The notes: generated by a model not told the origin, from the sequence alone. Positions 1 to 64,000 are shown, counted from the stretch's first letter. The stretch: 64,000 bases of DNA from a virus (IMGVR_UViG_3300033273_000208:1-64000), one strand, 5' to 3'. A program made the numbers and translations.

Positions 1-2
1 TC

Positions 3-95
3 TATATTGAGTATGTTGTTGAGGGTGAAGGTTGTCCCTTTGATCCTAATCAGGAACCTATTCTTCCTAGAGATGCAATGCCCGAGTGGAACTAA
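3..95 (+). CDS. 3' end of a hypothetical protein (truncated by window)
   Basis: Open frame YIEYVVEGEGCPFDPNQEPILPRDAMPEWN* ending TAA 93-95, just before the halogenase start. Confidence 0.6.
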   Translation, partial: YIEYVVEGEGCPFDPNQEPILPRDAMPEWN

Positions 96-98
96 TGT

Positions 99-1652
99 AT
101 GATTCGTAATGTTGTTATTGTAGGCGGTGGATCTGCTGGTTGGATGACCGCCGCTGCCTTTGAAAGATTACTTCCCGAATACAACGTAACCCTCGTAGAA
201 TCCCCCGATGTTCCTATTGTTGGAGTCGGGGAATCTACTTTAGGGCATATAAACATGTACCTACATCTGCTTGGTTTGGAAGACCATGAGTGGATGAAAG
301 AATGCGATGCAACATACAAAGTTGGAATCAGATTCACAGATTTCTATAAGAAAGACAATACGCACTGGGATTATCCTTTTGTGGATCCTGATCCTGATGC
401 TCTCCCTGGGGGACTTGTATCTTTCTGGGCGCTTCGCAATGCTTATCCTGAGAAATACTCACACCCTAATACATTCGCCCGAATGGTGAATGGAAACACA
501 TGGTTGATGGAAGAGAATCGTATTGACGATTCAGGTATGTGGGGTGAGATGGATAAGGACTATTCGTACCACATGGATGCGATTAAGTTCGGACAATGGT
601 TGAAGAATAATGTGTGTAAGAACGTCAAGTACGTTCAAGGGCATGTTATGGATGCGGATTATGATGAGCAAGGTAACATCACACGATTGTTCCTTGATAC
701 CAATGTATTCCTAAAAGCAGATCTATTCATTGACTGCACAGGGTTTGGATCTGTGCTGCTGGAAGGATTGATGGGTGTCAAGCACAAGTCTTTCAATCAT
801 ATCCTCCCAAATAATAAGGCAACGGTCTGTCGTGTGCCACATACAGATCCAGAAACTCAGGTGCAGAACTATACAAATGGTACAGCACTTGCTAATGGAT
901 GGGTCTGGAACATTCCACTGTGGAATAGAACTGGCACAGGATATGTGTGGTGCGATAAGTATCAGAATGAGTCGGGTGCTGAGCAGGAGTTTAGATCACA
1001 TCTTGCCAATCATTTTGATAATGTTCCTGACGACTTCCGCGTCATTGATATACGCAATGGCAAGCATGAGAAAGCATGGCATAAGAATGTTGTTGCAGTT
1101 GGACTGTCCTATGGTTTCATTGAACCATTAGAATCCACGGGATTGTTGACAGTACATGAACAGATTCGTCGTTTGATTGAGACACTGCAGACCAGAGATG
1201 GTGTAGTTAGTAGCATTGAGAAGTCAATGTTTAACTGTGCTGCTGATCGTGAGATTGATGGATTTGCCACATTTGTGTCCTGGCACTATGCCTTCTCGCT
1301 ACGTCGTGACTCTGCTTACTGGAGATATGTAACCGAGGATATTGATTACAGTATGGATCATTTCCATATGAACAGTCCTGAGGACAATACATTTAGAGAA
1401 CTTACAACATACAAGTATAGAACTCATGAGTTTCCTGCATCAATGGCAGGTACATTGTATGTACTAGCGGGGAATGATTTTGCTACACTTAGAGGACAGG
1501 GGCAAACTGTTACCTACGAAAAGTTTGGTGAACCTCCCCTAGATAGACTGTCGGGAGACGTTGACAGCAAGATGTATTGTGCATTAGAATACGTCAAGAA
1601 ACTACCTACATCCTATGAGTATTTGAGGGACACCATCTATGCTGTTTCGTAA
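99..1652 (+). CDS. Flavin-dependent tryptophan halogenase family protein (PrnA/RebH-like)
   Basis: GGGSAGW FAD motif, GVGEST, ATYKVGIRF (catalytic Lys), DCTGF, GWVWNIPL (WxWxIP), FIEPLESTG; 517 aa. Confidence 0.92.
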   Translation: MIRNVVIVGGGSAGWMTAAAFERLLPEYNVTLVESPDVPIVGVGESTLGHINMYLHLLGLEDHEWMKECDATYKVGIRFTDFYKKDNTHWDYPFVDPDPDALPGGLVSFWALRNAYPEKYSHPNTFARMVNGNTWLMEENRIDDSGMWGEMDKDYSYHMDAIKFGQWLKNNVCKNVKYVQGHVMDADYDEQGNITRLFLDTNVFLKADLFIDCTGFGSVLLEGLMGVKHKSFNHILPNNKATVCRVPHTDPETQVQNYTNGTALANGWVWNIPLWNRTGTGYVWCDKYQNESGAEQEFRSHLANHFDNVPDDFRVIDIRNGKHEKAWHKNVVAVGLSYGFIEPLESTGLLTVHEQIRRLIETLQTRDGVVSSIEKSMFNCAADREIDGFATFVSWHYAFSLRRDSAYWRYVTEDIDYSMDHFHMNSPEDNTFRELTTYKYRTHEFPASMAGTLYVLAGNDFATLRGQGQTVTYEKFGEPPLDRLSGDVDSKMYCALEYVKKLPTSYEYLRDTIYAVS

Positions 1653-2361
1653 GAGAAAACCAATCAGGTTCTGGTCTACTCTCCCAGGTGTAAAAGATTG
1701 CCATCCAGTGTATCCAGCACAAAAACTGGAACGCAAGATGTCAAAGTGCCCGTTTGCTGCTATACAACAACATGCCAGCAAATGTCCCGCATTGAAACAA
1801 TGGAGTAACACGGGGTTTATTATTCCTGCTCCGTGTGACTTCGTTATCATTACAAATGGTGATGGTGTTAGTGTAGACTGGAGAGCACCCACACTACTTG
1901 ATACTGACAATGGATTTATTACGATCCACGATGATAAACAAGCAAAGGCATCTGCACCACCTCACAGTATGGATTCTGTGATCAAGGTGGGTACAACCTG
2001 GAGAGTGTGGGCACCAAAAGATATTGTGTTTATTCAGTCCCCTGTGCTATATAATGGTGAGGAGCGATTCACTGCAGCAAGTGGTATCTTTGATCCCACA
2101 AGAGTTCCACAACTCAATGCACAACTTTATTGGCATGTGTTAGAGGGTGAAACACTCATTGAGGCAGGCACACCGCTATTCCAAGTCACGCCGATTCTTC
2201 GCAAATCGCTTAGACAGTGGGACTATGTAGTCGAGGATGCTAATGAGTCTGATCGTATGTTTGAAGCAGCGATCTCATATAATATGACATCTAAGTTTGA
2301 TATAGATACACATAGCGTCCTTAAAAACAACCAAAAGATTATTGAGAACCGTCATGTCTGA
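1639..2361 (+). CDS. DUF6065-like hypothetical protein (paralog of 4009-4698)
   Basis: KCPA..W..TGFIIPAPCD and AGTPLFQV motifs shared with 4009-4698; overlaps halogenase stop. Confidence 0.55.
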   Translation: MLFRKRKPIRFWSTLPGVKDCHPVYPAQKLERKMSKCPFAAIQQHASKCPALKQWSNTGFIIPAPCDFVIITNGDGVSVDWRAPTLLDTDNGFITIHDDKQAKASAPPHSMDSVIKVGTTWRVWAPKDIVFIQSPVLYNGEERFTAASGIFDPTRVPQLNAQLYWHVLEGETLIEAGTPLFQVTPILRKSLRQWDYVVEDANESDRMFEAAISYNMTSKFDIDTHSVLKNNQKIIENRHV

Positions 2362-2740
2362 AGAACTTAAAGTATCGTCAATCGATGAACTGTGGGATAA
2401 TCTTGCACTGCAACATGCAGTCAAGATGGAACAATACCTTGTAGCAAAGGGTCAACTGGATACTACTCTCGCCAACCCTGCATCTCAGGGAAGTGGTGTA
2501 ACATTTGATGTTAGAGAGATCCAAAACCTCCGCGATGAACTTGTAAAGATTGAGGGTGCACTTGATGCTCTGAATATCATCTACACTCAGATCGAGGGTA
2601 AAGAAGCACGCACATATGTTGTTGAACCTGAGCGTCCAGCACCTAAGGTAAGAGCGAAGGGTAGGGGCAAAGAGAAGTATAAAGAACTGGAAGAATGGGC
2701 ACCTGATGTTGATGCACCGAAGGTTGATACTGGTCTCTGA
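2354..2740 (+). CDS. Hypothetical coiled-coil protein
   Basis: ORF track 2342-2740; ATG at 2354 (MSEELK) preferred; coupled to both neighbours. Confidence 0.6.
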   Translation: MSEELKVSSIDELWDNLALQHAVKMEQYLVAKGQLDTTLANPASQGSGVTFDVREIQNLRDELVKIEGALDALNIIYTQIEGKEARTYVVEPERPAPKVRAKGRGKEKYKELEEWAPDVDAPKVDTGL

Positions 2741-3399
2741 TGATAAATCAAGAGTTGTTATTTCCTACACCAGTATGGTGGCAGGACTTTGATCTAGATA
2801 CTGATAAACTAACTGAAATATGCCATCAGATTCGTGATGAATATGATGGTCAAGTTAGATCTAATGTCGGTGGATATCAGTCCACCGATTTCAATGGCGA
2901 ACATCTATTGACTGTGGATGATGAGTTGGGTAAACTTGCTCATCATCTTACAGACATGGCAACACAAATCTACGCACGATTTGAACCACAAGGTACACAT
3001 GTGGAGATGGCAAATCTGTGGATCAATATCAATCATGGCAATGATTACAACGTCACTCATACACATCCTGGTTCTGTAATCTCTGGTGCATACTATGTCA
3101 CTGCACCAGAAGACGCAGGTAAGATTGTATTTGTGAAGGATCATTCCTCTGCATTTAACTTCTCATCCGTGGGAACAATGCAAGACTTTGCTGAAGGTGA
3201 AGGTGAACCATGGTTGTGGAATCAGTTTATGTACCCACCTGTCAAGAATAGGTGTATAATGTTCCCAGCATGGTTGCCACACAAAGTTGAACGAAGTGAG
3301 ACACAATCAGAACGTATCTCTATCTCATTCAACTTTGTACCTAGACAAAACCATGATAAAATAATGTATGGCATCGTGAAGAAGATCAATGAATGTTGA
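2740..3399 (+). CDS. 2OG-Fe(II) oxygenase, TIGR02466-like
   Basis: LFPTP N-terminus, HTHPG, SGAYY, FPAWLPH.V, RISISFN. Confidence 0.88.
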   Translation: MINQELLFPTPVWWQDFDLDTDKLTEICHQIRDEYDGQVRSNVGGYQSTDFNGEHLLTVDDELGKLAHHLTDMATQIYARFEPQGTHVEMANLWININHGNDYNVTHTHPGSVISGAYYVTAPEDAGKIVFVKDHSSAFNFSSVGTMQDFAEGEGEPWLWNQFMYPPVKNRCIMFPAWLPHKVERSETQSERISISFNFVPRQNHDKIMYGIVKKINEC

Positions 3400-4018
3400 G
3401 TTTCTATTTCCCACACCAGTCTGGCATGAAGATGTAAATGTCGATACTGATGCTCTGATTGCATTCAGTGTTGATTATATGCGTACTGAAAAGATGAACG
3501 GTGGTAGTTATGAATCAATGAATCTAACTGGTGCACAGTTCAGAGACAGTAAGTGTGTTGTTGGTAGTTTTGTCAGACAGGTGGAGGATAAAGCAAACGA
3601 AGCATTCCAAGACTTTGGTCCTCTGAATACATATGCTGAGATGGATCACTTCTGGTTCATTACAGTTCCACCAGGAGATCGTATGGCATTACATACACAT
3701 CCTGGTGCTGTGTTGTCTGGTGTTGTATATTTGTATGTGCCTGAAGGTGATGCTGGTTCTATCACTATTCGTAGAGATGCAACAACATCTCACCTCTATC
3801 ATTCTCTAGGTGCATACACATCATGCAATCGTGGTGACAATCAAATCACCTGGGACTCTGTAAGTTACGCTCCTGTTGTCAACAAGATGGTGCTATTTCC
3901 TGCATGGCAACCACACTCAGTATCACAGAATAATACTGACCAGGATCGCATCTCAGTGTCTTTTAACTTCCGCGTTAAGGAAGGTGTATACCCACATACG
4001 TCAAGATTATGGCAGTAG
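3389..4018 (+). CDS. 2OG-Fe(II) oxygenase, TIGR02466-like
   Basis: LFPTP, HTHPG, SGVVY, FPAWQPHSV, RISVSFN. Confidence 0.88.
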   Translation: MNVEFLFPTPVWHEDVNVDTDALIAFSVDYMRTEKMNGGSYESMNLTGAQFRDSKCVVGSFVRQVEDKANEAFQDFGPLNTYAEMDHFWFITVPPGDRMALHTHPGAVLSGVVYLYVPEGDAGSITIRRDATTSHLYHSLGAYTSCNRGDNQITWDSVSYAPVVNKMVLFPAWQPHSVSQNNTDQDRISVSFNFRVKEGVYPHTSRLWQ

Positions 4019-4698
4019 ATATTTACTATACATCTGTGATTCCCAAGAGGGACGAAGACTATCAGATCCCTACATTTGCTGAGGACTATGAAGTTCCACC
4101 TACACCAGCATACAATGATGGGATAAAGTCTCATGACCACATGTATTGTCCTGCCCACAAAGAGTGGTGTAAGAATAGATGGACATTTTACATGCCATTT
4201 GATCTACACTTCAGGTGCGACAGTGAGCATCGCATGATAGGATCAGATACACATGGAGATAAACTACAAGATCTGATTTCGATTGGTCCTAACTGGTGGG
4301 ATGATGAACTGCCAGAGATAGAAATCACATACAACACATTGTTTTGGACTAATACAAAGAATGTGTGGTTAGAGTATACTGGTCATCCCACAGTTGCACA
4401 GCATGGATTCAGTGTGGTGCCTGGCACATTTCCTATGTCATCATGGATGAGATCATTGCCTATTGGTGTCATTCCACATCGTATTGATGACGGTATCTAT
4501 ATCAAACGTGGTACACCCATCTTTCATGTTAAGTTTGTGCGAGGTAAAGATACATTCAAACTCACTAGAAAGACACCACCACCTGATAAGATAGTGCAAA
4601 TCAAACAGGATCAAGAACTCAAACACTGGGCACCATTTAAGTCCTGGGATCTAATCATGAAGAGGGAATCTAAATGTCCATTTCGTATCCGTTTCTGA
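4009..4698 (+). CDS. DUF6065-like hypothetical protein (paralog of 1639-2361)
   Basis: YCPA..W...WTFYMPFD, VVPG.FP.S.W.R, RGTPIFHV, C-terminal KCPF. Confidence 0.55.
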   Translation: MAVDIYYTSVIPKRDEDYQIPTFAEDYEVPPTPAYNDGIKSHDHMYCPAHKEWCKNRWTFYMPFDLHFRCDSEHRMIGSDTHGDKLQDLISIGPNWWDDELPEIEITYNTLFWTNTKNVWLEYTGHPTVAQHGFSVVPGTFPMSSWMRSLPIGVIPHRIDDGIYIKRGTPIFHVKFVRGKDTFKLTRKTPPPDKIVQIKQDQELKHWAPFKSWDLIMKRESKCPFRIRF

Positions 4699-5366
4699 AC
4701 CGTGAGCATTACGTCTGTGGTGACACACCGTTGTTATTCAAGGGTGTATGTGATGCACCTATACTCTATGTGGACTGGGAAGATGTTGAGCACTGCTTAA
4801 ACAATCCCTGGGAGTATAACATTGAGATTCTTGACAGCAATAACATCAAAGTTCCTATGCCCACTGTTCCTCACCCGTGGCATGGTAACTGGCATCCAGA
4901 CAAGAAAGTTATCATGGATCTTGTCAATGATAACCACACATTTGTGATTGCTAAGTATGGTCATCATAATGTTCATGTTAATGCATTGCTGCGTAGGATT
5001 GAGGATGCATTTGATGTAGCATGTGATGCACACATTTATGGTGCATTAGGTGGTGCAAGTTCATTCAAGATTCATTGGGATCAACCAGCAAACTTCATCA
5101 TGCAAATACATGGTGAGACACATTGGACAGTATATAATGAACGGTGTAGTACACTTGTCAAATATACTGGATTCCCCTATAATCCTAGTGAGGATGAAGT
5201 AACACCTGCAATCGATACGGTACTACAACCTGGAGACATGTTGTATATACCATCACGTTGTTATCATTGTGCTTGTCCTGATCAAGAACGACTGTCCCTA
5301 AGTATTCCTTGTTGGCATGATCCTGAGAACAAACCAGACAGAAATCAATACACACTTGATCTCTGA
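4674..5366 (+). CDS. JmjC/cupin-4 (ROX-like) 2OG oxygenase
   Basis: FKIHWD (HxD), FIMQIHGETHW, LQPGDMLYIPSRCYH. Confidence 0.85.
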   Translation: MSISYPFLNREHYVCGDTPLLFKGVCDAPILYVDWEDVEHCLNNPWEYNIEILDSNNIKVPMPTVPHPWHGNWHPDKKVIMDLVNDNHTFVIAKYGHHNVHVNALLRRIEDAFDVACDAHIYGALGGASSFKIHWDQPANFIMQIHGETHWTVYNERCSTLVKYTGFPYNPSEDEVTPAIDTVLQPGDMLYIPSRCYHCACPDQERLSLSIPCWHDPENKPDRNQYTLDL

Positions 5367-5853
5367 TGTAGCAACAAAAGAGATTGAACGTATAGTTACT
5401 GCTCCTGAGTTTCCCTGGTTTTATATACCTGATGCCACGGATCTTGTGCCTTCTGGTGGTGGTGCATTCATGCATCTATTGAAGATGGACTATGAGGTAC
5501 GATCACCATATTATGATCTATTTCATCTAGAGATCTGTAACTTTGCAAATCTCTATGGATATAGTCATGAGGATATATACCGTGCACGATTGGGTTTATT
5601 GTATCCCACCAAGAAGAAACATAACAAACCACATGTAGACTTCACTGATCCACATGATGTGATGTTGTGGTATATAACCAGTAACGATAAAGCACCCACA
5701 TTATTCTTCAATGACAGACTTGAAGAGATTCATCGTGTAGAATGTAGGCAGGGTCGTGTTGTGCATTTCCCTGGACATATGCTACACGCTTCAACACCAC
5801 CCAAGGATGGTATTCGTGTCGTTCTAAATGTAAATCTGAAGAGGTCAGTATGA
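5317..5853 (+). CDS. 2OG-Fe(II) oxygenase superfamily protein
   Basis: FPWFY, PHVD (HxD), GRVVHFPG..LHAS.P, RVVLNVN. Confidence 0.75.
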   Translation: MILRTNQTEINTHLISDVATKEIERIVTAPEFPWFYIPDATDLVPSGGGAFMHLLKMDYEVRSPYYDLFHLEICNFANLYGYSHEDIYRARLGLLYPTKKKHNKPHVDFTDPHDVMLWYITSNDKAPTLFFNDRLEEIHRVECRQGRVVHFPGHMLHASTPPKDGIRVVLNVNLKRSV

Positions 5854-6359
5854 TTACACAATGGTTTGATAGATCTAAGGGCGAGTGGCATTCACACCGC
5901 AGATATTTGTATGGTGAGAGTGCAGAACTCATGACCAGTGAACTACTCGTTGGTGACCTGAATGATGTTGAGAAAGCAGTCATTCCAGAAGATCTCAACA
6001 GTGACTATTATGTAAAGTTTGGATGGCAAACTGTTAAATATAGTTCAGGTGAACCTGCTTCATCTGGTGAGATGCTTGTCGGAATCAATAGTAAGGATGG
6101 GAAGATGTATCGCTCTCAAGGATACATGACCTCCAATCCCACCATGACTGATGTAACTATGATTGATGAGGATACTATCCTCTTTGATACGGAGTATGGA
6201 AAACAAAGATTTCGTGAAGAGATTCGACTCCTACACAATGACTCGGTAAGATTACGACAGACGATTGGTTTCAAGGGCAACCGTGTGACTATCGTCGGTC
6301 AATACTACGAAACTCGTAAGGAGAACGAGACCGATGTTCCTCAAGTCAGCACCACTTAG
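5850..6359 (+). CDS. Phycobiliprotein (bilin) lyase, CpcS/CpeS/CpcV family
   Basis: WF..S.GEWHSHRRY, YRSQGY....P, TEY...FREEIRL, RLRQTI match the S/U/V-type lyase beta-barrel pattern; closest by eye to the CpcV-like branch. Confidence 0.8.
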   Translation: MITQWFDRSKGEWHSHRRYLYGESAELMTSELLVGDLNDVEKAVIPEDLNSDYYVKFGWQTVKYSSGEPASSGEMLVGINSKDGKMYRSQGYMTSNPTMTDVTMIDEDTILFDTEYGKQRFREEIRLLHNDSVRLRQTIGFKGNRVTIVGQYYETRKENETDVPQVSTT

Positions 6360-6501
6360 CAAAGAGGCGAAAGGATTGCTCAAGAGAGCAATGTTATTGT
6401 TACTCTCTGACCTCTATAAGAGGCAGGGAGACATCAGTCCCAGACAACGTGATACAATACATGAGATTGTTACTACATTACATCTTGAACCCGAAGCATG
6501 A
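6334..6501 (+). CDS. Small hypothetical protein (55 aa)
   Basis: MFLKSAPLSKEAK...LEPEA*; fills the gap, ATGA-coupled to 6498. Confidence 0.55.
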   Translation: MFLKSAPLSKEAKGLLKRAMLLLLSDLYKRQGDISPRQRDTIHEIVTTLHLEPEA

Positions 6502-7106
6502 CTGTTTTCCCTATATTCTCCACACCTGTTTATGTTGACACCTATGATATTCCACAAGATGAAATAGATCTAATCAAACAGGAAGAATATAAGGATTATC
6601 CAAAGCGTGCAGATGGTATGCAGTCAGTGGATACACAACTCCTCAAGAGGTATCCGCGTCTGCATCACATCTGTCTGGGTCATATTGCCCACTATGCTCA
6701 CAATGTCCTCGCTATTGATGATCGAGTGACATGTGAGATTGTGTGTTCATGGGTCAACAAACACCGTCCTGGTGAGAGAGCAAACAGGCATGGACATACC
6801 AATAGTATGTTCACAGGTTGCCTGTATCTTGACGTGCCCGATGATAGTGGTAACATCATCTTTGAAGCATCATATAATCATGCCACATGGAACACAGGTA
6901 CACTCGAACCAGCAACATGGGAGGATAACATACTCAACTCACGCATCTGGCAGATTGTACCTGAGCGTGGCATGATTGTATGCTTCCCTGCACATGTAGA
7001 CCACTACACAGGATACAATGAGTCTACACAAGATAGATACTCATTAGGATTCAATGTAATGATGAAAGGTGACTTTAGTGCACCTACACGAGATTTGGTG
7101 TTATGA
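6498..7106 (+). CDS. 2OG-Fe(II) oxygenase, TIGR02466-like
   Basis: IFSTP, SWVN, HGHTNS, FPAHVDH, RYSLGFN. Confidence 0.88.
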   Translation: MTVFPIFSTPVYVDTYDIPQDEIDLIKQEEYKDYPKRADGMQSVDTQLLKRYPRLHHICLGHIAHYAHNVLAIDDRVTCEIVCSWVNKHRPGERANRHGHTNSMFTGCLYLDVPDDSGNIIFEASYNHATWNTGTLEPATWEDNILNSRIWQIVPERGMIVCFPAHVDHYTGYNESTQDRYSLGFNVMMKGDFSAPTRDLVL

Positions 7107-7735
7107 ACTTAGGTGAATACGATAGATCAGTCTTTCCACTGTTTAACAATCCACTCTATGTGTCTCGCAATGCTCCACTGTCTGCAGAGATAGTGGAATA
7201 TGTTGTTAATCAGGAGTATTATTCTGACCCACAAGAGAAGAATGGTGAGAATACTTCCAACCAAAGACTATTAGATGGATGCCCAGAGTTAAAGGCATTG
7301 GTTGAGAGACATCTGAATCACTATTTGTATAACATACTGTGCTTTGATAGGAAATATGTAGCACGTCATCATTGTTCGTGGGCAACTAGACACAAGACAG
7401 GTCATTCTGCTCACAAACATACACATTGCAACTCAATGTATAGTGGTGTGATATACATAAAAACGCCACCTAAATGTGGGGATATATTGTTTCACGCTGA
7501 TTGCAATCGTGACACATATACAACACCAGCAATGAGACCTGATATTGTTGAGCACAATATCTACAACTCAGCGTGTTGGTCTATACCTGCTGAAGAGGCA
7601 TTGATATTACTGTTTCCATCAACTGTGGAGCATAGTGTTGAACCCAACCGAAGTCTGTCGGATCGGTATAGTGTTGCGTTCAACTATTGGTTGCATGGAC
7701 AGTACGGCGACTGTACCAATAGGTTGACTATATGA
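7103..7735 (+). CDS. 2OG-Fe(II) oxygenase, TIGR02466-like
   Basis: LFNNP, HTHCNS, SGVIY, FPSTVEHSV, RYSVAFN. Confidence 0.88.
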   Translation: MNLGEYDRSVFPLFNNPLYVSRNAPLSAEIVEYVVNQEYYSDPQEKNGENTSNQRLLDGCPELKALVERHLNHYLYNILCFDRKYVARHHCSWATRHKTGHSAHKHTHCNSMYSGVIYIKTPPKCGDILFHADCNRDTYTTPAMRPDIVEHNIYNSACWSIPAEEALILLFPSTVEHSVEPNRSLSDRYSVAFNYWLHGQYGDCTNRLTI

Positions 7736-8332: not shown

Positions 8333-9571
8333 ATGACCGTTGTTCTTCGTCCTCACCAAGATCGTGCCCTTGCAGCAATGCAAGTCAACGATAAAGGTCA
8401 AGTCATTGTTCCTACTGGCGGTGGCAAGACTTTCATTATGATTCAGGATGCACTGCGTCAACTGCAGCAATCTTCCACGATTGTTGTTGTTGCTCCTCGC
8501 ATTCTGCTTGCTACTCAACTGTGTGATGAGTTCATGCAGTTTGTTGACAGCAAGTATGTGCATGTATGTCATGCTCACAGTGGTGAAACTCATTACTTTC
8601 ACTCTACCAAGAGCAGCAAGATTGCTCTCTTCAACAACACCGCTCGTGCTGCAGGTGAGTCCTGCATTATCTTCACCACCTATCATTCGCTGGGTCGTGT
8701 AGTTGATGCAGGCATCAATATCAGTGCAGTGTACTTTGACGAGGCACACAATAGTGTTGCTAAGTCTTTCTTCGCCAGCACCTTTGCCATCTCTGATGTT
8801 GCAGAGCGTTGCTACTTCTTCACTGCTACTCCTCGCATCTCGCACAAGCATGAGCGTGGAATGCACAATCGTGAGGTGTATGGTACTGTTATCGAGAATG
8901 TTTCTGCTTCGGAACTGATTGCTAACGGTAGCATCATTCCCCCTCAGATTGTGCCATTCAACACGGATAACTCTCGCAACAAGGTCAACGCTCACGTTGT
9001 TGACAGTAACACTGTGCAGGATATCATCGACAATCTCGATGAGACTGCTGCTGCTAAAGTGTTGGTTGCAGTGCCATCCAGTCGTGTGCTAGGTAACATG
9101 ATCGGTCAGACTGATCTACTCCAACAACTCAAGGATCGTGGTTACCATGTTCTCCACGTCACCAGCAAGTTCGGTGCCTATGTAGACGACAAGAAAGTCA
9201 ATCGTGAGGTGTTCTTTGACACTCTCACCGCCTGGGGTGCAGATCCCACCAAGAAGTTTGTTATCTTCCACTATTCTATTCTGTCGGAAGGTATCAACGT
9301 TCCTGGTCTCACCCATTGCATTCTTCTGCGTAATCTCAACGTTGTTGAGATGGCACAGACAATCGGTCGTGTTATTCGTCTACATAAAGACGACGCTGCT
9401 GCTATTCGCAGCGGTGAACTCACCCCTGGTAAGTTTGACTTTTATAGGAAACCTTTCGGTTATGTGACTGTCCCTGTGCATCGCACATACGGTAAGCAAG
9501 TGACCAAGCGACTGCAGAATGTAGTTGATGCTATCTTCGTGAAAGGCATTCCTCCTCTGTCCCTCGTCTAA
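8333..9571 (+). CDS. SF2 DEAD/DEAH-box helicase (ResIII-like)
   Basis: PTGGGKT Walker A, YFDEAHN, FTAT, EGINVP, QTIGRVIR. Confidence 0.92.
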   Translation: MTVVLRPHQDRALAAMQVNDKGQVIVPTGGGKTFIMIQDALRQLQQSSTIVVVAPRILLATQLCDEFMQFVDSKYVHVCHAHSGETHYFHSTKSSKIALFNNTARAAGESCIIFTTYHSLGRVVDAGINISAVYFDEAHNSVAKSFFASTFAISDVAERCYFFTATPRISHKHERGMHNREVYGTVIENVSASELIANGSIIPPQIVPFNTDNSRNKVNAHVVDSNTVQDIIDNLDETAAAKVLVAVPSSRVLGNMIGQTDLLQQLKDRGYHVLHVTSKFGAYVDDKKVNREVFFDTLTAWGADPTKKFVIFHYSILSEGINVPGLTHCILLRNLNVVEMAQTIGRVIRLHKDDAAAIRSGELTPGKFDFYRKPFGYVTVPVHRTYGKQVTKRLQNVVDAIFVKGIPPLSLV

Positions 9572-9576: not shown

Positions 9577-10068
9577 ATGCTTTACGATCAACCACCTGCA
9601 CCTGTATATCAGTGCGTTCAGTGTACTCCTGCCGAGCAGAAAACTCTAGCGTTTCTGCAAGATCGGGGTATTGTGAACAAGAATGCTCTCGCTACTGTGA
9701 TGGGTAACATCAAACAGGAGAGCAACTTTAACCCTCTCGTTTGTGAGGGTGGGGCAAACACTGGTTATCAGCGTTGCACTCGTGGAGGATTTGGTCTCAT
9801 TCAGTGGACTACGGAAGCAAGATACCTGGGTCTGGGTCGTTTCTGCAGGAAGAATAGTTGCAACGTCAACTCTCTTGAGGGACAACTGCGGTACATGTGG
9901 AATGAACAACAGTTCCAAACTCTCATTCCTAAGTTAAAGACACCAGGCAAAACCATCCCACAATATATGAATGACTCATGGTATTGGTTAGGGTGGGGTA
10001 TCCATGGCAATCGTACCCACTATGCATATCAATACCATCGAAAGATGGAACTGAAATATGTAATGTGA
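9577..10068 (+). CDS. Phage tail lysozyme family (Phage_lysozyme2) protein
   Basis: GNIKQESNF (catalytic Glu), GFGLIQWT, GQLRYM..E. Confidence 0.8.
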   Translation: MLYDQPPAPVYQCVQCTPAEQKTLAFLQDRGIVNKNALATVMGNIKQESNFNPLVCEGGANTGYQRCTRGGFGLIQWTTEARYLGLGRFCRKNSCNVNSLEGQLRYMWNEQQFQTLIPKLKTPGKTIPQYMNDSWYWLGWGIHGNRTHYAYQYHRKMELKYVM

Positions 10069-10124
10069 CAATCCAATAACCTTCACACGGGGCAGCGTTG
10101 CTGCCCCGTTTCTGTGTGTATAAT
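10065..10124 (+). promoter_or_regulatory. Early promoter repeat 2 with internal hairpin
   Basis: GTGACA at 10065; 10-bp stem ACGGGGCAGC/GCTGCCCCGT 10087-10109; TATAAT 10119-10124. Confidence 0.7.
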
Positions 10125-10149
10125 GAAGAGGTCCAAACGACACAAGACA

Positions 10150-55810: not shown

Positions 55811-55811
55811 A

Positions 55812-58800
55812 ATGCCCCAGAATACTAATCTGAACATTAGTCCTTATTTTGACGACTTCGATAAGGACAAAAACTTTTACAGAGTTCTCTTTAGACCAGG
55901 ATTCCCCATCCAGGCTAGGGAACTTACCTCGATGCAGACTATTCTGCAGAACCAAATCGAGTCCATGGGTCAACACTTCTTCAAAGAAGGTGCCATGGTC
56001 ATTCCTGGTCAGATTGGTTACGACCTGAATGTTAAAGCAGTTATCCTGCAACAAAACTTTCTGGGGGTTGATGTTGAGAACTACCGTGAGCAACTGCACG
56101 GACAACTGATTACTGGCGTTACATCTGGTGTTAAGGCAAAGGTTCTGTACTCTATTCCTGCTACAGAATCCGATAGAGGATATATCACACTGTACGTTAA
56201 GTATGTTGACTCTGGCGATACCGTTTCGGCAGAAAATGTCAAAGAGTTTATCGATAACGAACAACTCTACGCTGAGAACGAGATTACCTTTGGATCAACC
56301 CTGATTGAGGTTTCTTCTCCGTTTGCACAACTTTTGCCTGCTGAGTCAACTGCAACGGGTTCTGTTGCATACATCAATGCTGGTGTGTATTTCATCAGAG
56401 GTTACTTTGTAGACGTGGAGTCTGCATACCTTCTGCTGGATCAATACACCAACAACCCTTCTTATCGTGTTGGTCTTGAGGTCAGTGAGTCGATTATCAC
56501 CCCTGAGGATGATCCCTCACTGAACGACAATGCTGCTGGTTCTTCTAACTATTCTGCCCCTGGTGGACATAGATTCCGCATTAGAACTACCCTCACTAAG
56601 AAAGCAATCAATGATGATACTGATAAGAACTTCATTGAACTGCTGAGAATCAACAACAGTAAGGTTGAGCAGGTCGTTAATAAGACTGCATATTCCGAAC
56701 TGGAGCGTTCTCTTGCACGCCGTACGTTTGAAGAGAGTGGCGACTACGTTGTAGATACGTTTGACGTTACTGCCCGTGAGCACCTTGATGATTTCTTCAA
56801 CAACGGTGTTTACAGAACTGGAGAAGTTTCCCCCGATGGCGTTTCTGCTTCTGATGAGTACCTTGCTGTTGAGGTTGGTCCTGGTAGAGCATATGTTAGA
56901 GGTTATAGAACCGAGTTCTTGACTTCTCAGTATGCTTCTGTTCCCAAACCCAGAACATTCAAAACCAGAGAGAACGGTATTATTTCGTTTGAACTCGGCA
57001 ACTTTGTCGAAGTTTACGACGTTTATGGCAATCCACAAATCAGTGGTGACGGTGTTAACGATGCATATCAGATCATCGAACTCCGTGACAACTGGATGAT
57101 CGCACCTAACGACACAACCGATTATTCCACTTACACTGGTTCTTCCCAGGGTAACATGATCGGTAAGGCTCGTGTCGTCCAGATGAAGTATGTGAAGACT
57201 GATACCACACTCGGTACAGACTTCCACAACCTCTACATGATGGACATTCAAATGTTCACGGTGATGAACTTCAAGGCAAACGTCGTTCTGCAAGCAGGCG
57301 ATGTTATTGAAGGTCGTACATCTGGTGCTAGAGCATATGTCTATGAAGGTGCAACAACGGGTCAGAACCGTAAGTATGTGACACTCTATCAGGTGTCTGG
57401 CACATTTACAAATGGTGAGGTCGTCACAAGAGACGGTCGTGTCGTGGGTGAGATTGATGCTGTGTTCGGTTATCAGTTCCAAGACACCAGATCCATGGTT
57501 GGTAGAAACCAGGGTTCGGCAATCGTTTTTGGTTGTAACGTCAGCCTGAAGGATCAGTATGCAATCGACTGCTATAACGTTGATGTTGATCAGACCACTA
57601 ACCAACTCCTTTATGGTTATGGTTCCAACTTTGGTACAGAACTCCGCCCTGGTGAAGTTCTCCGTGTAACTGGTACATCCCTGAAGGGCGAAAACACTCT
57701 CCGCATTAAGAGAGTTGACCCAACAGCGATTGATGCTACAGAAGCAAACTCTGCAACTTCCGTCTCAAACTACATCTTTGACTATGCCAATCAAACGGCA
57801 ATCCTCGATACGACTCTGACTAAGGGTACCATTCCTGATGGCGAATATGCTCAGGGTGTGGTCATTCGTATGAGACCGTATCTGCAGATGAAGTCATATC
57901 AGAACGGTGAACTCAGCATTGACTTGCCATATCGTTCGATGCGTTCTCTGGAAGACGAATCGTTCTTCGTCTATAGATCGTTTGTTAATAAGGTTGTAAG
58001 TAACGGTGATATCACTATCACTCTCCCCGAGTCTGAGGCATTCGGTTCACTGGATGAAGGTGACTTCACTCTTACGGTTGCTGCTCAATCTGGTTCTTCC
58101 TATACAGTTGGACAGAACCTCGATCTGGAAACAGAAAATGATGCACAGAATCTGACAGTTAGTTTTGGTGCTGAGAGACAGTCCATTACTGTTCAAGGTC
58201 TGACAGGTGTTACTTCGGTTCACCTGAATGCACTGGTCTCAAAAAATACCGTCTCCAGAAAGATCAAGACTGCATCTAAGATGCGTGTCCTGAAAGTTAT
58301 TAAGACGAATCAGCAGAACGATACTCTGAAGTTTGGTCTTGCTTACGGTAACCTGTACGGTACTCGTATTGAAGACCGTGAGATCTCGATGGGTCTGAAC
58401 GATGTCTATAAGATTCATGCTGTATATGAGTCTGAGACTGATCAAGATGCACAGATTCCATATGTTGTTCTTGACTCAGCAACCTTCTTTGATGTTGGTT
58501 CTGTTGTTGTCGGTCGTACCTCTGGTGCTAGAGCACGAGTCGTATCGTTTGTCAACTCCACCCTCCGTCTCTATAACGTATCTCTGAATAACGTTCCGTT
58601 CGTTCCTGGTGAGATTATCGACGGTTTTGACGATGATGGCATTGCACTGACTGCACTGATTGATGACGCTGATGGATCTGTCGTCCTTGGTGCTAGAAAC
58701 ATTACATCATCGTTCACTCTGGATCCTCAGCAAGGTTCACACTTTACTGATGTTTCCAAACTGATTCGTGAACCCAACATCACTGCTCCTACAAGGAAAC

Positions 58801-61800
58801 TGATCATTATCTTTGATTACTTCCTGCATGAGCAGACTGGTGATTATTTCTCTGCACAATCTTACACAGGTATTCCTTTCAAGGAAATCCCTAACTACAA
58901 ACTTGACGGTAGTATCAACTTCCTGGTTGACCAGATTGACTTCCGTCCTGCAGTTGGTGAGCAAGCAGAAGGTTCGGGTACGGTAGGCAACCCCTACTAT
59001 GTGAACTGTACCTCTCTTGACTTCGACTCCCGTGTATTCTCTACGCAGAACAATGCTGCTGGTGGATCCACAATCTTCGATATCATGCGTGTAGAGACAG
59101 CATTCCGTGCTGACTACTCCTGGTATCAACCCAGACTTGACCACATCTATCTGGGTCACAATAACGAAATCATCGTTGCTCAGGGTAAACCTGGGGATGA
59201 TCTTCTTCCTCCCGACAAGGTTGAGAATGCCATGTTGCTTGCAACTATGGAACTCAAACCATATGTCTACAATCCTGAGCGTGACGTAATCATCAGCCCT
59301 GAGCAGATTCGTCGCTTCACGATGAAGGACATTGGTGACCTTGAGGCACGTCTTGCACAAGTTGAATACTACACCTCCCTGTCTCTGCTTGAAGTTCAGG
59401 CAGACAACACCAAGTCCTACGATGCTAACGGTCTTGATAGATTCAAGAACGGTTATGTTGTGGATGACTTCACCGATCATACAGTTGGTGATGTTCTGAG
59501 TCCTGACTACAAGTGCTCCTTGGACTTCAGAGAAGGTATTCTCCGTCCGTCTCACTACACAACTAACGTTGCTCTTGAGTGGAACGAGACTTCCTCTAGC
59601 AGTATTGTCAAGCACGAAGCAAACGTTCTGACACTTCCATACACCGAGGAAGTTATCGTTGAGCAACCATATGCTTCCCGTCAAGAGAACGTTAACCCGT
59701 TCAACGTGTTTACATTCATTGGTCGTATCGACCTCCTGCCGTCTTCTGACGACTGGATCGACACCAAGCGTCTGCCTGCAAGAGTTGAGAACGTCGAAGG
59801 TGACTTCTCTGCAGTTGCTAGAGACCTGAACATCGACCAGAACGGTTTCGCTCCTATTCAGTGGGGTTCTTGGCAGACCAACTGGACTGGTGAAACACTA
59901 CAATCCAGAAACAGATTCCTGTCTAGATCTGGTAGATATGGTGTTGGTCGTCAGTTGGGTCGTGCTGGTCACGGTCAGCGTCGTCAAGGTCTCTTCTACC
60001 TGCACGAACGTCGTACCTATCGTGTTGTTAATAACCAGACACGTCAAGGTGTGAGAACTCGTGTTGTTCCTCGTGTTGATCGCAAGTCTCTGGGTGACAG
60101 CATTCTGTCTCAGACAGCAATCCCCTGGATTCGTTCCAGAAACGTGGGTTACAAGGTTTCTCGTATGAAACCCAATACTCGTTTCTATGCATTCTTCGAC
60201 AACGTGAATGTAAACAACTACATGATGCCTAAGATCATCGAGTTGGTGAAGAACTCTTCTGCAGACCCCAATACAAACGAAACACCGTTTGTTGTTGGTG
60301 AGACTGTTGTTGGTTCTACATCTGGTTGCCGTTTGAAAGTTGCTAACCCGAATGATGGTGGTCAGTTCAACCCCTATACTGGCACATCCTCCCCGCTGCC
60401 CGAGTCTTATGCATCGCAGACAGATATCCTAAACATTGACGTTACTGCTCTGGCAGAAACCAAGAACCCTGATTACTACGGCAACATTGCTGTCGGTGAG
60501 GTCCTTGTCGGTCAAACCTCTGGTGCTCGTGCTGTCGTCAAGGATCGTCGTCTGATCTCCAACAACGTTGGTGAGATTGCTGGTACTCTGTTTATTCCAA
60601 ACCCAAACGAGGATGCAAACCCCCGTTTCGCAACAGGTACTCGTACTTTCCGTTTTACAACGAATGCCGATAACAGCAAACTGCCAGGCACCGTTGACTC
60701 TTCTGCTGAAACAACTTACGAAGCAAGAGGTGTTCTGAACACTGTCCAAGAAAACATCCTAGCAGTTCGTAACGCTGAGATTGTTCGTGACACGGTTTCG
60801 AGTACAAGAAACGTTATCTCTACAAGAACAGAGACACGTCAGATTGGTTGGTATGACCCTCTGGCACAATCCTTCATCCTCGACGAAGAAGGTGGTATGT
60901 TCCTGAACTCGGTTGACATCTTCTTTGCAACCAAGGACGCGAACATTCCCATCTCTATGCAGATTCGTACCATGGAGAATGGTTATCCGACTGGCGTTAT
61001 TTTGCCGTTCTCGGATATCACACTCAATCCCTCCCAGGTAGAAACATCTGAGAACGCTGCTATTGCAACCAAGTTCACATTCCGCGCACCTGTTTACATC
61101 AAGCAGTCCACAGAATACTGTTTTGTTCTGCTGTCCGACTCCAACGAATACAAGGTTTGGATCTCCAGAATGGGTGACGTTGATGTCTCTGGTACAAGAA
61201 CGATCTCTGAGCAACCGTATGCTGGTGTTCTGTTCAAGTCTCAGAACGCATCTACCTGGACCGCCGACCAGTATGAAGACCTGAAGTTCCGCATCAACCG
61301 CTGCATCTTCGGTCCTACATCTGGTACTGCAGTCTTCAATAACTGCACTCTGGGTAAGGGTAATGGTGGTGTTCACAATCTCGTTGAGAACCCGATCCAA
61401 ACTCTCAAACCCAAACAGATTATTGATCTTCCTGTCGGATTTGCTGAGTCGTTCACCGTTGGTGCTCGTTTGATTCAGGATCCCTCCAATGCAGCAGGTA
61501 CCATTGTCGAATATGACACCACTGGTTCTATTCCAAGACTGACCCTTAATGATCTTGAAGGCACAATCGCAACTGGTTTCCTCCAGCAAGGTGGCGGTAT
61601 CTTCAACGTGTTCAAGTCCTCTCAGTCACTGGTAACCATCACAACATCTGTGGTTCAGAACGGTGCATTCCAAGCAGGTCAAGTCATTACTAATGGTGGT
61701 GATGCTGAAGCAACCGTGGTTTCTTTCGACGAAAACACAGGGATTATTGAAGCAAACTTCTGTAAGGGTACCTTCACTGATGCTGACACAATCAGCAATA

Positions 61801-63167
61801 CTGCCAGTGTAACTGCAACGATTGTTGCATCAGGTGTTGTCTATAGTGGCGACTCTCGTTCTGGATATCCTACTGCTTCACCCACTTACGACTCTGACGA
61901 GAAGGAAGTGCTGGTATATCACAAGAACCACGGTATGCACGAACGTAGCAACAACATCACTGTTGAAGGCATCGTTTCCGAAGTTGGTGGTACAACTCTG
62001 ACATCTACTCTTGCTGCTGATGCAACAAACATCGCAGTACAGGATGCTCTGTCATTCCACATCATCATCAACAACAAAGACGTTGGTACTACCAACCCTG
62101 GTTATATCAAGATCGGTGATGAGATCATTGCATATAGTGCAATCTCTTCAACTGGTCAAACCATCACTGTTGCTCCTTCTGGTCGTGGTGCTGATGGCAC
62201 TGCTGCCGTTGAGCACCCCGCAGGATCTGTAGTTGAGTGCTACAACCTGGATGGTATTCCTCTGATCGAACTGAACAAAACACACGAACAGATCTCCTGC
62301 CCATGGTTGGATACTTACATGCTGCACACCACAAGTGTTGCAAGCAACGGTATCCGTGGCGGTGGTAAGAATGTCTTTGCATCTCAGAACGTACAGTTCG
62401 AGACCATCACCCCGACATTGAAGGTTATGAACCTTCCAGAAACTGCTGTTCGTGCCTTGGTAAATACTACTACGGCGACTTCGATCGGTGATGGTTCAAC
62501 TAACATCGACCAAGCATCGTTCATCAACACTGGTGACTATGAAGAGATTGTTCTCAACGAACTGAACCAGTTTGCAACTCCCAGAATGATTGCTTCTCAA
62601 ATCAATGAGAACAACAAAATGGAAGGTAGCAAGTCTCTGACGATGCAAGTTCAACTCAGCACACAAAACACAAATCTGTCACCTGTTGTTGACCTTGACC
62701 GCTGCTCTTTGATCACTACATCCAATCGTATCAACTATTGGCCAGGTGGTTCTGCTGTTATTCCTTCTCAGGCAAACATTGATAGAACTGCTGACACCTC
62801 TACCGATCCTGTTGGTGATCAAAATGACGCTGTGTATCTCACCCGTCTCGCAAGACTCACAAACGAATCTCGTTCTTTGAAACTTCAGTTCCAGATTACA
62901 AGATCTGATGAGTCGTACATCTATCCTTATTACAAGGTGTTCACTTTCGGTTCTTCTACTAGACCTGAAGAAGTGGATTGGATTCCGTTCCCGACAACAA
63001 TCGAGTACGACGACACCCCATCCGAAGAACTCCTCTGGAAGGATTATGAATATGAAGTCAACGGATTGAACTTCAACGCTTTCCAAATCAAGTTGGTGAT
63101 GAAGTCGAAGAACCAAGCACGAGTACCGCTCATCGCGGACATGAGAGCAATCGCACTCGCTACTTAA
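55812..63167 (+). CDS. Large tail/virion structural protein, VrlC / DUF4815-like (2451 aa)
   Basis: PYFDDFD..KNFYRVLFRPG..QARELT..Q, APGGHR, LARRTFEESGDY, RFKNG.VVDDF, DPLAQSF, SQN..TW...Q.EDLKF. Confidence 0.85.
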   Translation: MPQNTNLNISPYFDDFDKDKNFYRVLFRPGFPIQARELTSMQTILQNQIESMGQHFFKEGAMVIPGQIGYDLNVKAVILQQNFLGVDVENYREQLHGQLITGVTSGVKAKVLYSIPATESDRGYITLYVKYVDSGDTVSAENVKEFIDNEQLYAENEITFGSTLIEVSSPFAQLLPAESTATGSVAYINAGVYFIRGYFVDVESAYLLLDQYTNNPSYRVGLEVSESIITPEDDPSLNDNAAGSSNYSAPGGHRFRIRTTLTKKAINDDTDKNFIELLRINNSKVEQVVNKTAYSELERSLARRTFEESGDYVVDTFDVTAREHLDDFFNNGVYRTGEVSPDGVSASDEYLAVEVGPGRAYVRGYRTEFLTSQYASVPKPRTFKTRENGIISFELGNFVEVYDVYGNPQISGDGVNDAYQIIELRDNWMIAPNDTTDYSTYTGSSQGNMIGKARVVQMKYVKTDTTLGTDFHNLYMMDIQMFTVMNFKANVVLQAGDVIEGRTSGARAYVYEGATTGQNRKYVTLYQVSGTFTNGEVVTRDGRVVGEIDAVFGYQFQDTRSMVGRNQGSAIVFGCNVSLKDQYAIDCYNVDVDQTTNQLLYGYGSNFGTELRPGEVLRVTGTSLKGENTLRIKRVDPTAIDATEANSATSVSNYIFDYANQTAILDTTLTKGTIPDGEYAQGVVIRMRPYLQMKSYQNGELSIDLPYRSMRSLEDESFFVYRSFVNKVVSNGDITITLPESEAFGSLDEGDFTLTVAAQSGSSYTVGQNLDLETENDAQNLTVSFGAERQSITVQGLTGVTSVHLNALVSKNTVSRKIKTASKMRVLKVIKTNQQNDTLKFGLAYGNLYGTRIEDREISMGLNDVYKIHAVYESETDQDAQIPYVVLDSATFFDVGSVVVGRTSGARARVVSFVNSTLRLYNVSLNNVPFVPGEIIDGFDDDGIALTALIDDADGSVVLGARNITSSFTLDPQQGSHFTDVSKLIREPNITAPTRKLIIIFDYFLHEQTGDYFSAQSYTGIPFKEIPNYKLDGSINFLVDQIDFRPAVGEQAEGSGTVGNPYYVNCTSLDFDSRVFSTQNNAAGGSTIFDIMRVETAFRADYSWYQPRLDHIYLGHNNEIIVAQGKPGDDLLPPDKVENAMLLATMELKPYVYNPERDVIISPEQIRRFTMKDIGDLEARLAQVEYYTSLSLLEVQADNTKSYDANGLDRFKNGYVVDDFTDHTVGDVLSPDYKCSLDFREGILRPSHYTTNVALEWNETSSSSIVKHEANVLTLPYTEEVIVEQPYASRQENVNPFNVFTFIGRIDLLPSSDDWIDTKRLPARVENVEGDFSAVARDLNIDQNGFAPIQWGSWQTNWTGETLQSRNRFLSRSGRYGVGRQLGRAGHGQRRQGLFYLHERRTYRVVNNQTRQGVRTRVVPRVDRKSLGDSILSQTAIPWIRSRNVGYKVSRMKPNTRFYAFFDNVNVNNYMMPKIIELVKNSSADPNTNETPFVVGETVVGSTSGCRLKVANPNDGGQFNPYTGTSSPLPESYASQTDILNIDVTALAETKNPDYYGNIAVGEVLVGQTSGARAVVKDRRLISNNVGEIAGTLFIPNPNEDANPRFATGTRTFRFTTNADNSKLPGTVDSSAETTYEARGVLNTVQENILAVRNAEIVRDTVSSTRNVISTRTETRQIGWYDPLAQSFILDEEGGMFLNSVDIFFATKDANIPISMQIRTMENGYPTGVILPFSDITLNPSQVETSENAAIATKFTFRAPVYIKQSTEYCFVLLSDSNEYKVWISRMGDVDVSGTRTISEQPYAGVLFKSQNASTWTADQYEDLKFRINRCIFGPTSGTAVFNNCTLGKGNGGVHNLVENPIQTLKPKQIIDLPVGFAESFTVGARLIQDPSNAAGTIVEYDTTGSIPRLTLNDLEGTIATGFLQQGGGIFNVFKSSQSLVTITTSVVQNGAFQAGQVITNGGDAEATVVSFDENTGIIEANFCKGTFTDADTISNTASVTATIVASGVVYSGDSRSGYPTASPTYDSDEKEVLVYHKNHGMHERSNNITVEGIVSEVGGTTLTSTLAADATNIAVQDALSFHIIINNKDVGTTNPGYIKIGDEIIAYSAISSTGQTITVAPSGRGADGTAAVEHPAGSVVECYNLDGIPLIELNKTHEQISCPWLDTYMLHTTSVASNGIRGGGKNVFASQNVQFETITPTLKVMNLPETAVRALVNTTTATSIGDGSTNIDQASFINTGDYEEIVLNELNQFATPRMIASQINENNKMEGSKSLTMQVQLSTQNTNLSPVVDLDRCSLITTSNRINYWPGGSAVIPSQANIDRTADTSTDPVGDQNDAVYLTRLARLTNESRSLKLQFQITRSDESYIYPYYKVFTFGSSTRPEEVDWIPFPTTIEYDDTPSEELLWKDYEYEVNGLNFNAFQIKLVMKSKNQARVPLIADMRAIALAT

Positions 63168-63230
63168 TACTTAAAGCTATATCTGTTCTTCTGAACCCTT
63201 ACAGTGTTATTCTAATCAGATTATTAGATT

Positions 63231-63491: not shown

Positions 63492-63687
63492 AGTGACCGA
63501 AACTATGGAACAGAGTGAACTGCTCGCTAACTTTCGTGAACGTTACACCAAACTTCTCGAAACAAACAAAGAACTTACTCAGCAAATCAAGAATAATGAG
63601 GCACAAGCACTGAAACTGCTTGGAGCAATCGAAACCCTAGAGTATTTGGGACAAGAAAGTGAAACCGCTGAAACCCCCGAAGAATGA
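63481..63687 (+). CDS. Small coiled-coil protein
   Basis: MPAEVTE...LKLLGAIETLEYL; GGAGG RBS. Confidence 0.7.
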   Translation: MPAEVTETMEQSELLANFRERYTKLLETNKELTQQIKNNEAQALKLLGAIETLEYLGQESETAETPEE

Positions 63688-63692
63688 TACAG

Positions 63693-63716
63693 AGAGTCCT
63701 TCGGGACTCTTTTTTT
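63693..63716 (+). terminator. Intrinsic terminator with cUUCGg tetraloop
   Basis: AGAGTCC-TTCG-GGACTCT-TTTTTT. Confidence 0.9.
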
Positions 63717-63720
63717 CTGG

Positions 63721-63728
63721 CATAAATA
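63721..63728 (+). promoter_or_regulatory. T4-type late promoter (variant)
   Basis: CATAAATA upstream of 63769. Confidence 0.6.
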
Positions 63729-63768
63729 ACTAGAAGGCAAGGTACCGCTGGCACTATCTTAATAAGCA

Positions 63769-64000
63769 ATGGCAAATAGAATCCAACTAAGACGTGACGG
63801 TGCTCAGCAGTGGGCAAACGTCAACCCAATCCTCGCTCAGGGTGAACTCGGAATCGAGATCGACACTTCGCGTATTAAGATTGGTGATGGTGTTACACCC
63901 TGGAACTCGTTGAAATATGAGCGACCAATCGAGACTGAATCGAACACTGCAAATACGCTCGTCAAGCGTGATGCTGACGGTAACTTCTCTGCAGGTGCGA
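63769..64000 (+). CDS. Tail fibre protein, N-terminus (truncated by window)
   Basis: MANRIQLRRD...W...NPILAQGELGIE.DT...KIGDG.T.WNSL.Y fibre N-terminal domain. Confidence 0.85.
   Translation, partial: MANRIQLRRDGAQQWANVNPILAQGELGIEIDTSRIKIGDGVTPWNSLKYERPIETESNTANTLVKRDADGNFSAGA

Follow-up and report, generated by a model that had tools for sequence, protein, structure and literature searches.

Complete absence of AATT from a marine cyanomyovirus contig and a candidate solitary EcoRI-fold nuclease as its probable driver

Background

The avoidance of short palindromes is a familiar property of virulent double-stranded DNA phages: Staphylococcus phage K is free of GATC and Bacillus phages are free of GGCC. 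A stretch of 64,000 nucleotides of viral DNA (IMGVR_UViG_3300033273_000208:1-64000, referred to here as the window) raises the question of what removes every copy of AATT from a phage genome and keeps it out. The window comprises the first 64,000 bases of a 73,883-bp contig (G000) from an IMG/VR viral record that is estimated to be 41% complete. We report exact counts of AATT, a comparison with related phages and a structural analysis of the product of one gene of the window, here called R. We propose, with a probability of roughly 0.7, that the purge is driven by the phage's own solitary EcoRI-fold nuclease, encoded by R and unaccompanied by a methylase, and that the absence of sites serves as self-protection. 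The argument turns on two features:

1-64000, no strand: AATT-free and CCGG-free stretch of a T4-like marine cyanomyovirus, which runs on to the contig end at 73,883
10150-10665, plus strand: R, gene of 171 amino acids for a predicted miniaturised EcoRI-fold nuclease, candidate AATT-specific type IIP endonuclease without a linked methylase; an alternative in-frame start lies at 10123

Results

AATT is absent and is avoided by synonymous codon choice

An exact count finds no AATT in the window, where base composition predicts 351 copies and a second-order Markov model 207, and none in the whole contig (402 and 233 expected, respectively). An initial annotation of this DNA, made by reading the sequence, had claimed just this absence against a chance expectation of a few hundred copies, with TTAA, TATA, ATAT and GATC remaining common, and had proposed exact counts against Markov expectations as a check; the counts agree with it throughout, the four comparison words occurring 130, 212, 314 and 365 times in the window. 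When the 68 kb of plus-strand open reading frames (ORFs) are shuffled amongst synonymous codons, 200 shuffles give 281 ± 12 copies of AATT and never fewer than 247, against the observed zero. AATT thus lies far below the composition, Markov and codon-aware expectations alike, as restriction-site avoidance would have it.

The route by which the word is avoided can be read from the codon junctions. Asparagine is encoded by AAC in all 186 cases in which a T-initial codon follows and never by AAT (724:567 in other contexts), ATT is used for none of the 202 isoleucines that follow an A-ending codon (48% in other contexts), and lysine, glutamate and glutamine before a TT- codon take the G-ending codon by 183 to 0 (1391:1384 in other contexts). 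Across 571 at-risk junctions there is not one exception. That codon junctions dodge AATT had been noted by eye, with the end of gp8 (KIVIEF, aaa atc gta atc gag ttc) and the interrupted A/T tracts near 18764, 18873 and 18893 as examples, and each of these is present as described. Because no amino-acid sequence forces AATT, the word could be purged without cost at the protein level, and the purge is achieved wholly through context-dependent choice of synonymous codons.

Selection against AATT is still acting

Relatives of the phage were fetched by their gp6 and scored by the ratio of observed to expected AATT (O/E). AATT is missing altogether from the six contigs whose gp6 is at least 95% identical, whilst the next clade, at 77% gp6 identity, and all remoter gp6 relatives have normal values (O/E 0.63-1.5). 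The sister contig G001, of 111,864 bp, has no AATT against 599 expected; it shares 86.9% identity with G000 over 64.9 kb, with 8,513 mismatches in 64,894 aligned bases. At 3,801 positions the two contigs are one substitution away from AATT and the median rate predicts about 128 gains between them, yet there are none. Comparable 4-mers have 68-182 lineage-specific sites in the same alignment, other A/T-rich 4-mers having been gained or lost 68-156 times each. The lack of a single gain over 13% divergence implies that the selective agent has acted continuously and that the purge is no relic: selection against AATT is still acting.

A non-selective cause, whether mutation bias, a constraint on DNA structure of the A-tract kind, or an artefact of assembly or library construction, has a negligible probability. 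We found no point in its favour, and it would have to account for the lack of AATT throughout the 186 kb of G000 and G001, at 13% divergence, and in another four independent contigs from metagenomes, for the normal counts in relatives at 77% gp6 identity, for the free turnover of ATAT, AATA and AAAT, and for an avoidance that depends on codon context. Shotgun cloning with Tsp509I, MspI or CviJI was considered as a source of such an artefact and was ruled out by the codon-context pattern together with the six independent metagenome contigs.

Depletion of AATT accompanies the R gene

The initial annotation had also suggested a comparison with relatives that lack the gene at 10150-10665. Amongst cultured phages, homologues of R are found in many S-RIM2 isolates and in S-CREM2, annotated as 'restriction endonuclease EcoRI'. 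Adding S-RIM2 and S-CREM2 to 35 IMG/VR loci outside the present lineage gives 37 R-bearing loci, in which the median Markov O/E of AATT is 0.39; for 57 gp6-chosen relatives the figure is 0.91 (p = 1e-15). No word but AATT is undepleted where R is missing (0.91) and depleted where it is present; three words of the RGCY set show larger relative drops in the R loci, yet these are already depleted in the R-less relatives. The depletion extends to every one of the ten NAATTN contexts (0.13-0.43) and so points to a target of 4 bp. Eight long records, one of them a complete genome, from relatives whose AATT is normal lack R, in a search that detected its positive controls.

The contrast is visible on a single host. 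S-RIM2, which carries R together with a methylase and grows on Synechococcus WH7803, has 60 AATT where 369 are expected, while S-PM2 and S-RSM4, which share this host and lack R, have normal counts (474 against 457 expected and 239 against 346, or 263 by the Markov model). A host system that restricts AATT does not, therefore, explain the depletion in S-RIM2.

Other words are purged without an identified phage gene

AATT is not the only word missing from this phage. CCGG is absent from the window (E0 172; 201 for the contig), as it is from G001, from nearly all gp6 relatives down to 33% identity and from S-PM2, S-RSM4 and S-RIM2; it is normal in some cyanomyoviruses with the AATT cassette (L093, L105, L120). 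AGCT occurs 13 times in the window, GGCC 8 times and AGCC plus GGCT 29 times, and in four of the eight GGCC cases a Trp-Pro junction leaves no alternative. The 58 sites of RGCY (AGCT, GGCC, AGCC, GGCT) in the contig all lie beyond 20.2 kb (from 20241), within the late structural module, and none falls in the first 20 kb. Neither of the 13%-diverged contigs contains any of at least 12 hexamer palindromes, for which the Markov expectations are 2-19 each: AGTACT, TTCGAA, GACGTC, ATTAAT, GTCGAC, GCATGC, CTCGAG, TTTAAA, ACGCGT, AGCGCT, GGCGCC and ACTAGT. A phage nuclease or other phage gene that would account for the CCGG, RGCY and hexamer purges was not identified. Other total purges are seen in relatives, TTAA in L047 (0 against 83 expected) and GCGC in several low-GC clades (L013-L022, L030-L041). 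The set of purged 4-mers is lineage-specific.

These purges bear on the most serious alternative, in which the natural hosts carry an AATT-specific restriction-modification (R-M) system of the MluCI/Tsp509I type and the loss of AATT is an ordinary escape from it. The cassette of nuclease and methylase in the relatives would then be a captured copy whose methylase serves against restriction, and R in the present phage would be a passenger or have another role. A phage-carried methylase is a classic anti-restriction device; the loss of CCGG, RGCY, AGTACT, TTCGAA, GACGTC and others with no phage nuclease found for them speaks for strong pressure of the host type. Against it stand the normal AATT counts of the two phages that share WH7803 with S-RIM2, and the finding of depletion in cassette-bearing loci but in none of the gp6-chosen relatives. 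A phage protected by a methylase should, moreover, need less depletion and not more, and R is under strong purifying selection in a genome with no methylase found where, if active, it would by itself force the avoidance of AATT. A pattern scan of 185,579 prokaryote genomes, of limited sensitivity, returned one weak match to R, of 46 residues, in a Bacteroidota metagenome-assembled genome. We regard escape from the host as unlikely, at about one chance in five.

The product of R resembles a miniature EcoRI

An AlphaFold2 model of the R product, built on 22 homologues, has a predicted local distance difference test score (pLDDT) of 81.5. A Foldseek search with this model places EcoRI chains at ranks 1-5 (E 2e-5, probability 1.0), and VIA-align superposes it on EcoRI with Z 13.7 and a root-mean-square deviation of 2.9 Å over 150 of the 171 residues, the second-best match having Z 8.7. 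The predicted structure thus has the EcoRI fold. P59-D60, E75-x-K77 (here E75-G-K77) and Q79 are invariant in the 22 homologues and stand in the same order as in EcoRI; in the putative recognition segment G83, N84, A85, E87 and R88 are likewise invariant and I86 is conserved in at least 90%. These residues are the counterparts of the catalytic PD...ExK of EcoRI, of its Gln115 and of its GNAIER segment (EcoRI 140-145), in which Asn141, Ala142 and Arg145 contact the inner AATT (PMC4081073). The same work places the AATT-cutter MluCI in one group with EcoRI and MunI (PMC4081073).

The R product is predicted to form a symmetric homodimer through the GNAIER helix, with an ipSAE of 0.62 against 0.00 for the best control, a score that may stem from the model's memory of, or likeness to, the solved EcoRI structure. 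In calibration 20 of 30 solved homodimers attained this mark, as did 1 of 23 monomers; at least 94% of the contacts are common between runs, with pLDDT of at least 75. The gene is intact in both G000 and G001 and its ratio of non-synonymous to synonymous substitution rates (dN/dS) of 0.09 is close to that of the neighbouring helicase gene (0.088), as would befit a functional gene under purifying selection.

Comparison by sequence does not reveal this likeness. The R product itself has no match in Pfam, where PF02963 comes up below threshold in 4 of the 22 homologues (best E 0.011); neither phmmer nor a profile search with R against the sequences of the PDB finds EcoRI, and NCBIfam gives no match. 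Of ten of the longer members of the family one, a distant relative, matches PF02963, with E 7e-4 and 19.2 bits, under the cut-off of 22. Since such searches are empty or sub-threshold, the link to EcoRI rests on fold and motifs. The family itself is large, with more than 250 homologues at E <= 0.001 in a protein collection clustered at 90% identity, amongst which the 120 listed share 64-96% identity with the R product; a profile search yields 279 clusters at 50% identity, mostly of 160-230 amino acids.

It might be supposed that an EcoRI-fold protein of this kind is not an AATT endonuclease at all and acts instead in nicking, repair, homing or at another sequence, the purge of AATT merely co-varying with the cassette. 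The protein is some 100 residues shorter than EcoRI and falls under the Pfam threshold, and the R loci are also unusually poor in RGCY. RGCY is, on the other hand, depleted in gene-less relatives too, whereas AATT alone changes from undepleted to depleted with the gene, and does so uniformly over all NAATTN contexts. The conservation of both the catalytic and the AATT-reading residues without exception in 22 homologues, and the linked methylase of the relatives, which is the signature of an R-M pair, further reduce this alternative to one that we hold to be improbable, at a little under one chance in ten.

The methylase has probably been lost from this lineage

Wherever the contig is long enough, homologues of R outside the present lineage are all followed downstream by a Dam-family N6-adenine methyltransferase (PF02086, TIGR00571), either after a few bases or with one ORF between. 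From this gene order the two appear to form a phage-borne R-M pair in the relatives. A linked cognate methyltransferase, as expected of a type II R-M system, is thus found in the relatives and is missing from the sampled part of this genome. PF02086, PF01555, PF00145, PF13651, PF02384 and PF05869 have no match in G000, G001 and G002, whose union of about 118 kb covers about 66% of the genome, and tblastn with the methylase of the relatives finds neither a methylase nor a remnant of one in the G000 contig. The arrangement is instead that of a solitary endonuclease in a site-free genome, of the PacI type, with no AATT in 73.9 kb and 111.9 kb and no methylase in the sampled two-thirds or so.

In a tree of the nucleases the methylase-less clade is nested inside clades that carry both genes (support 98/91). 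Some lineages with both nuclease and methylase are already almost free of AATT, with observed over expected counts of 3/78, 0/40 and 6/89, which suggests that the loss of sites came before the loss of the methylase.

The same Dam-family methylase is paired elsewhere with an unrelated ORF of about 290 amino acids with a D...ExK motif, which replaces the miniature EcoRI-like gene (L139, L141, L144, L147, L148, L155-L158, L160-L163, L170). These loci, too, are depleted in AATT (1/126 in L160), and a fold search with the ORF gives weak matches only, to HhaI (Z 4.6) and MspI (Z 3.5).

R lies in a variable island

The surroundings of R contain the following features:

8333-9571, plus strand: helicase gene (ResIII/DEAD), left anchor of the variable island with R
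9577-10068, plus strand: phage tail lysozyme-like gene, which together with R makes up the segment that G005 lacks between its helicase and oxygenase genes
10087-10109, plus strand: between the lysozyme gene and R, strong terminator-like hairpin of 10 pairs (8 G-C) and then a T-rich run
10119-10124, plus strand: TATAAT, a -10-like hexamer 26 nucleotides upstream of the ATG at 10150, which as read from the sequence may belong to a promoter of R's own
10634-11221, plus strand: 2-oxoglutarate-Fe(II) (2OG-Fe(II)) oxygenase gene, right anchor, in the place taken in relatives by the methylase gene that follows R

In G005, the nearest relative without R, the helicase gene abuts the homologue of the oxygenase gene, and AATT is normal at 117 per 20 kb. 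S-RIM2 has its R-M pair on the upstream side of the helicase gene. Because the position or presence of R differs between G005, S-RIM2 and the present phage, R can be said to sit in a variable island.

Metatranscriptome contigs from three runs, at a likeness of at least 90%, cover the helicase and lysozyme genes and do not cover 10118-10521. Those over the helicase and lysozyme genes, at a depth of about 25-30, stop at 10026-10077, just before the hairpin, which is a weak hint. DNA contigs of a 2023 seawater run cover R.

The phage and its other genes

The ORFs of the contig include T4-type gp25, gp6, gp8, gp9/10, a neck protein and gp15, along with 2OG-Fe(II) oxygenases, a tryptophan halogenase and a CpeS-like lyase, and their best phage matches are in Synechococcus and Prochlorococcus myoviruses. 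By this gene content the contig is assigned to a T4-like marine cyanomyovirus. A megablast query of 8 kb has no DNA match in a collection of cultured phages.

A cluster of modifying enzymes (99-7735, 10634-11221 and 17078-17722 of the window) comprises the tryptophan halogenase, a JmjC/cupin protein, the CpeS-like bilin lyase and seven ORFs of the 2OG-Fe(II) oxygenase type, one of them weakly matched. The window also holds two giant ORFs, at 26665-49236 (7,523 amino acids, in the gp7 position after gp6) and at 55812-63167 (2,451 amino acids, DUF4815); in S-RIM2 and S-PM2 the position is taken by similar but shorter virion structural proteins.

Discussion

The very strong selection by an AATT-specific nuclease that the initial annotation had proposed is supported by an absence achieved through synonymous changes only, by its maintenance over 13% divergence, by a depletion that is linked to a gene and by the EcoRI-fold product of that gene with its GNAIER segment. 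We go beyond that proposal in holding that the phage itself, and not its host, most likely supplies the nuclease.

Some of our observations weigh against this. The relatives with both genes reach an O/E of 0.86, so that the gene does not always come with strong depletion, and the R loci are poorer in RGCY than the gp6-chosen loci, so that part of the contrast may be an effect of clade or genome region. CCGG, RGCY and the hexamers are strongly purged with no self-encoded enzyme, presumably by way of host systems. Sequence-only searches do not put the R product in the EcoRI family, the curated threshold of PF02963 not being reached. A distant methylase may lie elsewhere in the genome, of which the search covered about 66%. 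Finally, we infer the catalytic activity, expression and target of R, together with its AATT specificity, for which motif conservation and correlation are the grounds.

The reading that we favour, with R's own product as the driver, would run as follows. An ancestor would have carried a phage-borne R-M pair made up of the nuclease and a linked N6-adenine methylase of the Dam family. Imperfect protection of the fast-replicating phage DNA would have brought about selection against AATT, with sites lost stepwise by synonymous changes, until none was left and the methylase became dispensable and was lost. The retained enzyme, probably a homodimer cutting at AATT, would cleave non-self DNA that bears this word, be it the host chromosome or co-infecting phages, while the phage's own genome would offer no target and any new AATT would be removed by selection. 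That marine T4-like cyanophages in general tell self from non-self DNA by sequence content in place of base modification, with solitary 4-bp cutters (here an EcoRI-derived one for AATT) that shred the host chromosome for nucleotides or destroy co-infecting phages, is a more tentative idea, to which we give somewhat less than even odds.

If the enzyme cuts AATT, the phage would be a clear example from nature of a virus kept safe from its own restriction enzyme purely by the erasure of several hundred sites, and the intermediates (both genes present, partial depletion) would still be found among its relatives, S-RIM2 for one. It would show an R-M system turning into a methylase-free weapon and would offer a testable account of the means by which cyanomyoviruses, without the hydroxymethylcytosine (hmC) and the denA and denB of T4, attack the DNA of hosts or rivals. 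The enzyme would be very small for the EcoRI fold, at 171 amino acids, and probably specific for 4 bp, with potential as a reagent and as a minimal model of AATT recognition. It would be a caution, too, against taking the avoidance of k-mers in phage genomes for a plain record of the defences of their hosts.

Comparison with known systems

The finding extends the known phenomenon of restriction-site avoidance in phages, with a self-encoded solitary nuclease as the likely driver. As in those phages, a short palindrome has been cleared from the genome through synonymous changes, with a sequence-specific nuclease as the presumed selective force. Here, however, the best candidate for that nuclease is encoded by the phage and not by its host, and the purge is total for a 4-bp word of A and T only that is expected some 400 times per 74 kb. 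In the literature on cyanophage restriction, palindrome avoidance, host-DNA degradation and solitary endonucleases we found no published description of a self-encoded, methylase-less nuclease in a site-free cyanophage.

As to the enzyme, the R product would share the PD-(D/E)XK alpha-class fold with R.EcoRI (G^AATTC; PDB 1ERI, 2OXV), MunI (C^AATTG) and MluCI (^AATT), and with R.EcoRI in particular the PD...ExK...Q catalytic strand, an identical GNAIER and a predicted symmetric dimer through the recognition helices. It differs from R.EcoRI (277 amino acids) in its length of 171 amino acids, in having only 5 residues between ExKxQ and GNAIER and in lying below the Pfam threshold, as well as in its probable target, a bare 4-bp AATT, and in being phage-borne and, in this lineage, methylase-less.

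The closest precedent for a restriction gene tolerated without its cognate methylase in a site-free genome is the solitary R.PacI of Pseudomonas alcaligenes, discussed by Ershova et al. 2012 (PMC3488263). The 8-bp, AT-only site of PacI is absent almost by chance from a GC-rich bacterial genome, whereas here a 4-bp site has been actively erased several hundred times and kept erased, and the carrier is a lytic virus.

A lytic virus of a phototroph with a 4-bp-specific type II nuclease, as proposed here, has a counterpart in the chloroviruses, whose R-M systems, as Agarkova et al. are said to have described in 2006, reportedly degrade host DNA while the viral DNA is methylated. The relatives with both genes, such as S-RIM2, have the same gene layout. 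In the present phage self-protection would come from the absence of sites and not from methylation, and the cleavage of host DNA is a candidate role for the nuclease in cyanophages.

A functional analogy may be drawn, lastly, with denA and denB of T4 and its hmC, by which a phage destroys non-self DNA to which its own is immune, although the proteins are unrelated and self would be marked here by sequence content rather than by base modification. None of denA, denB and ndd is present in cyanomyoviruses, which have been suggested to break down host DNA by a route not yet described (PMC2984593); R, if it acts as we propose, could be that route.

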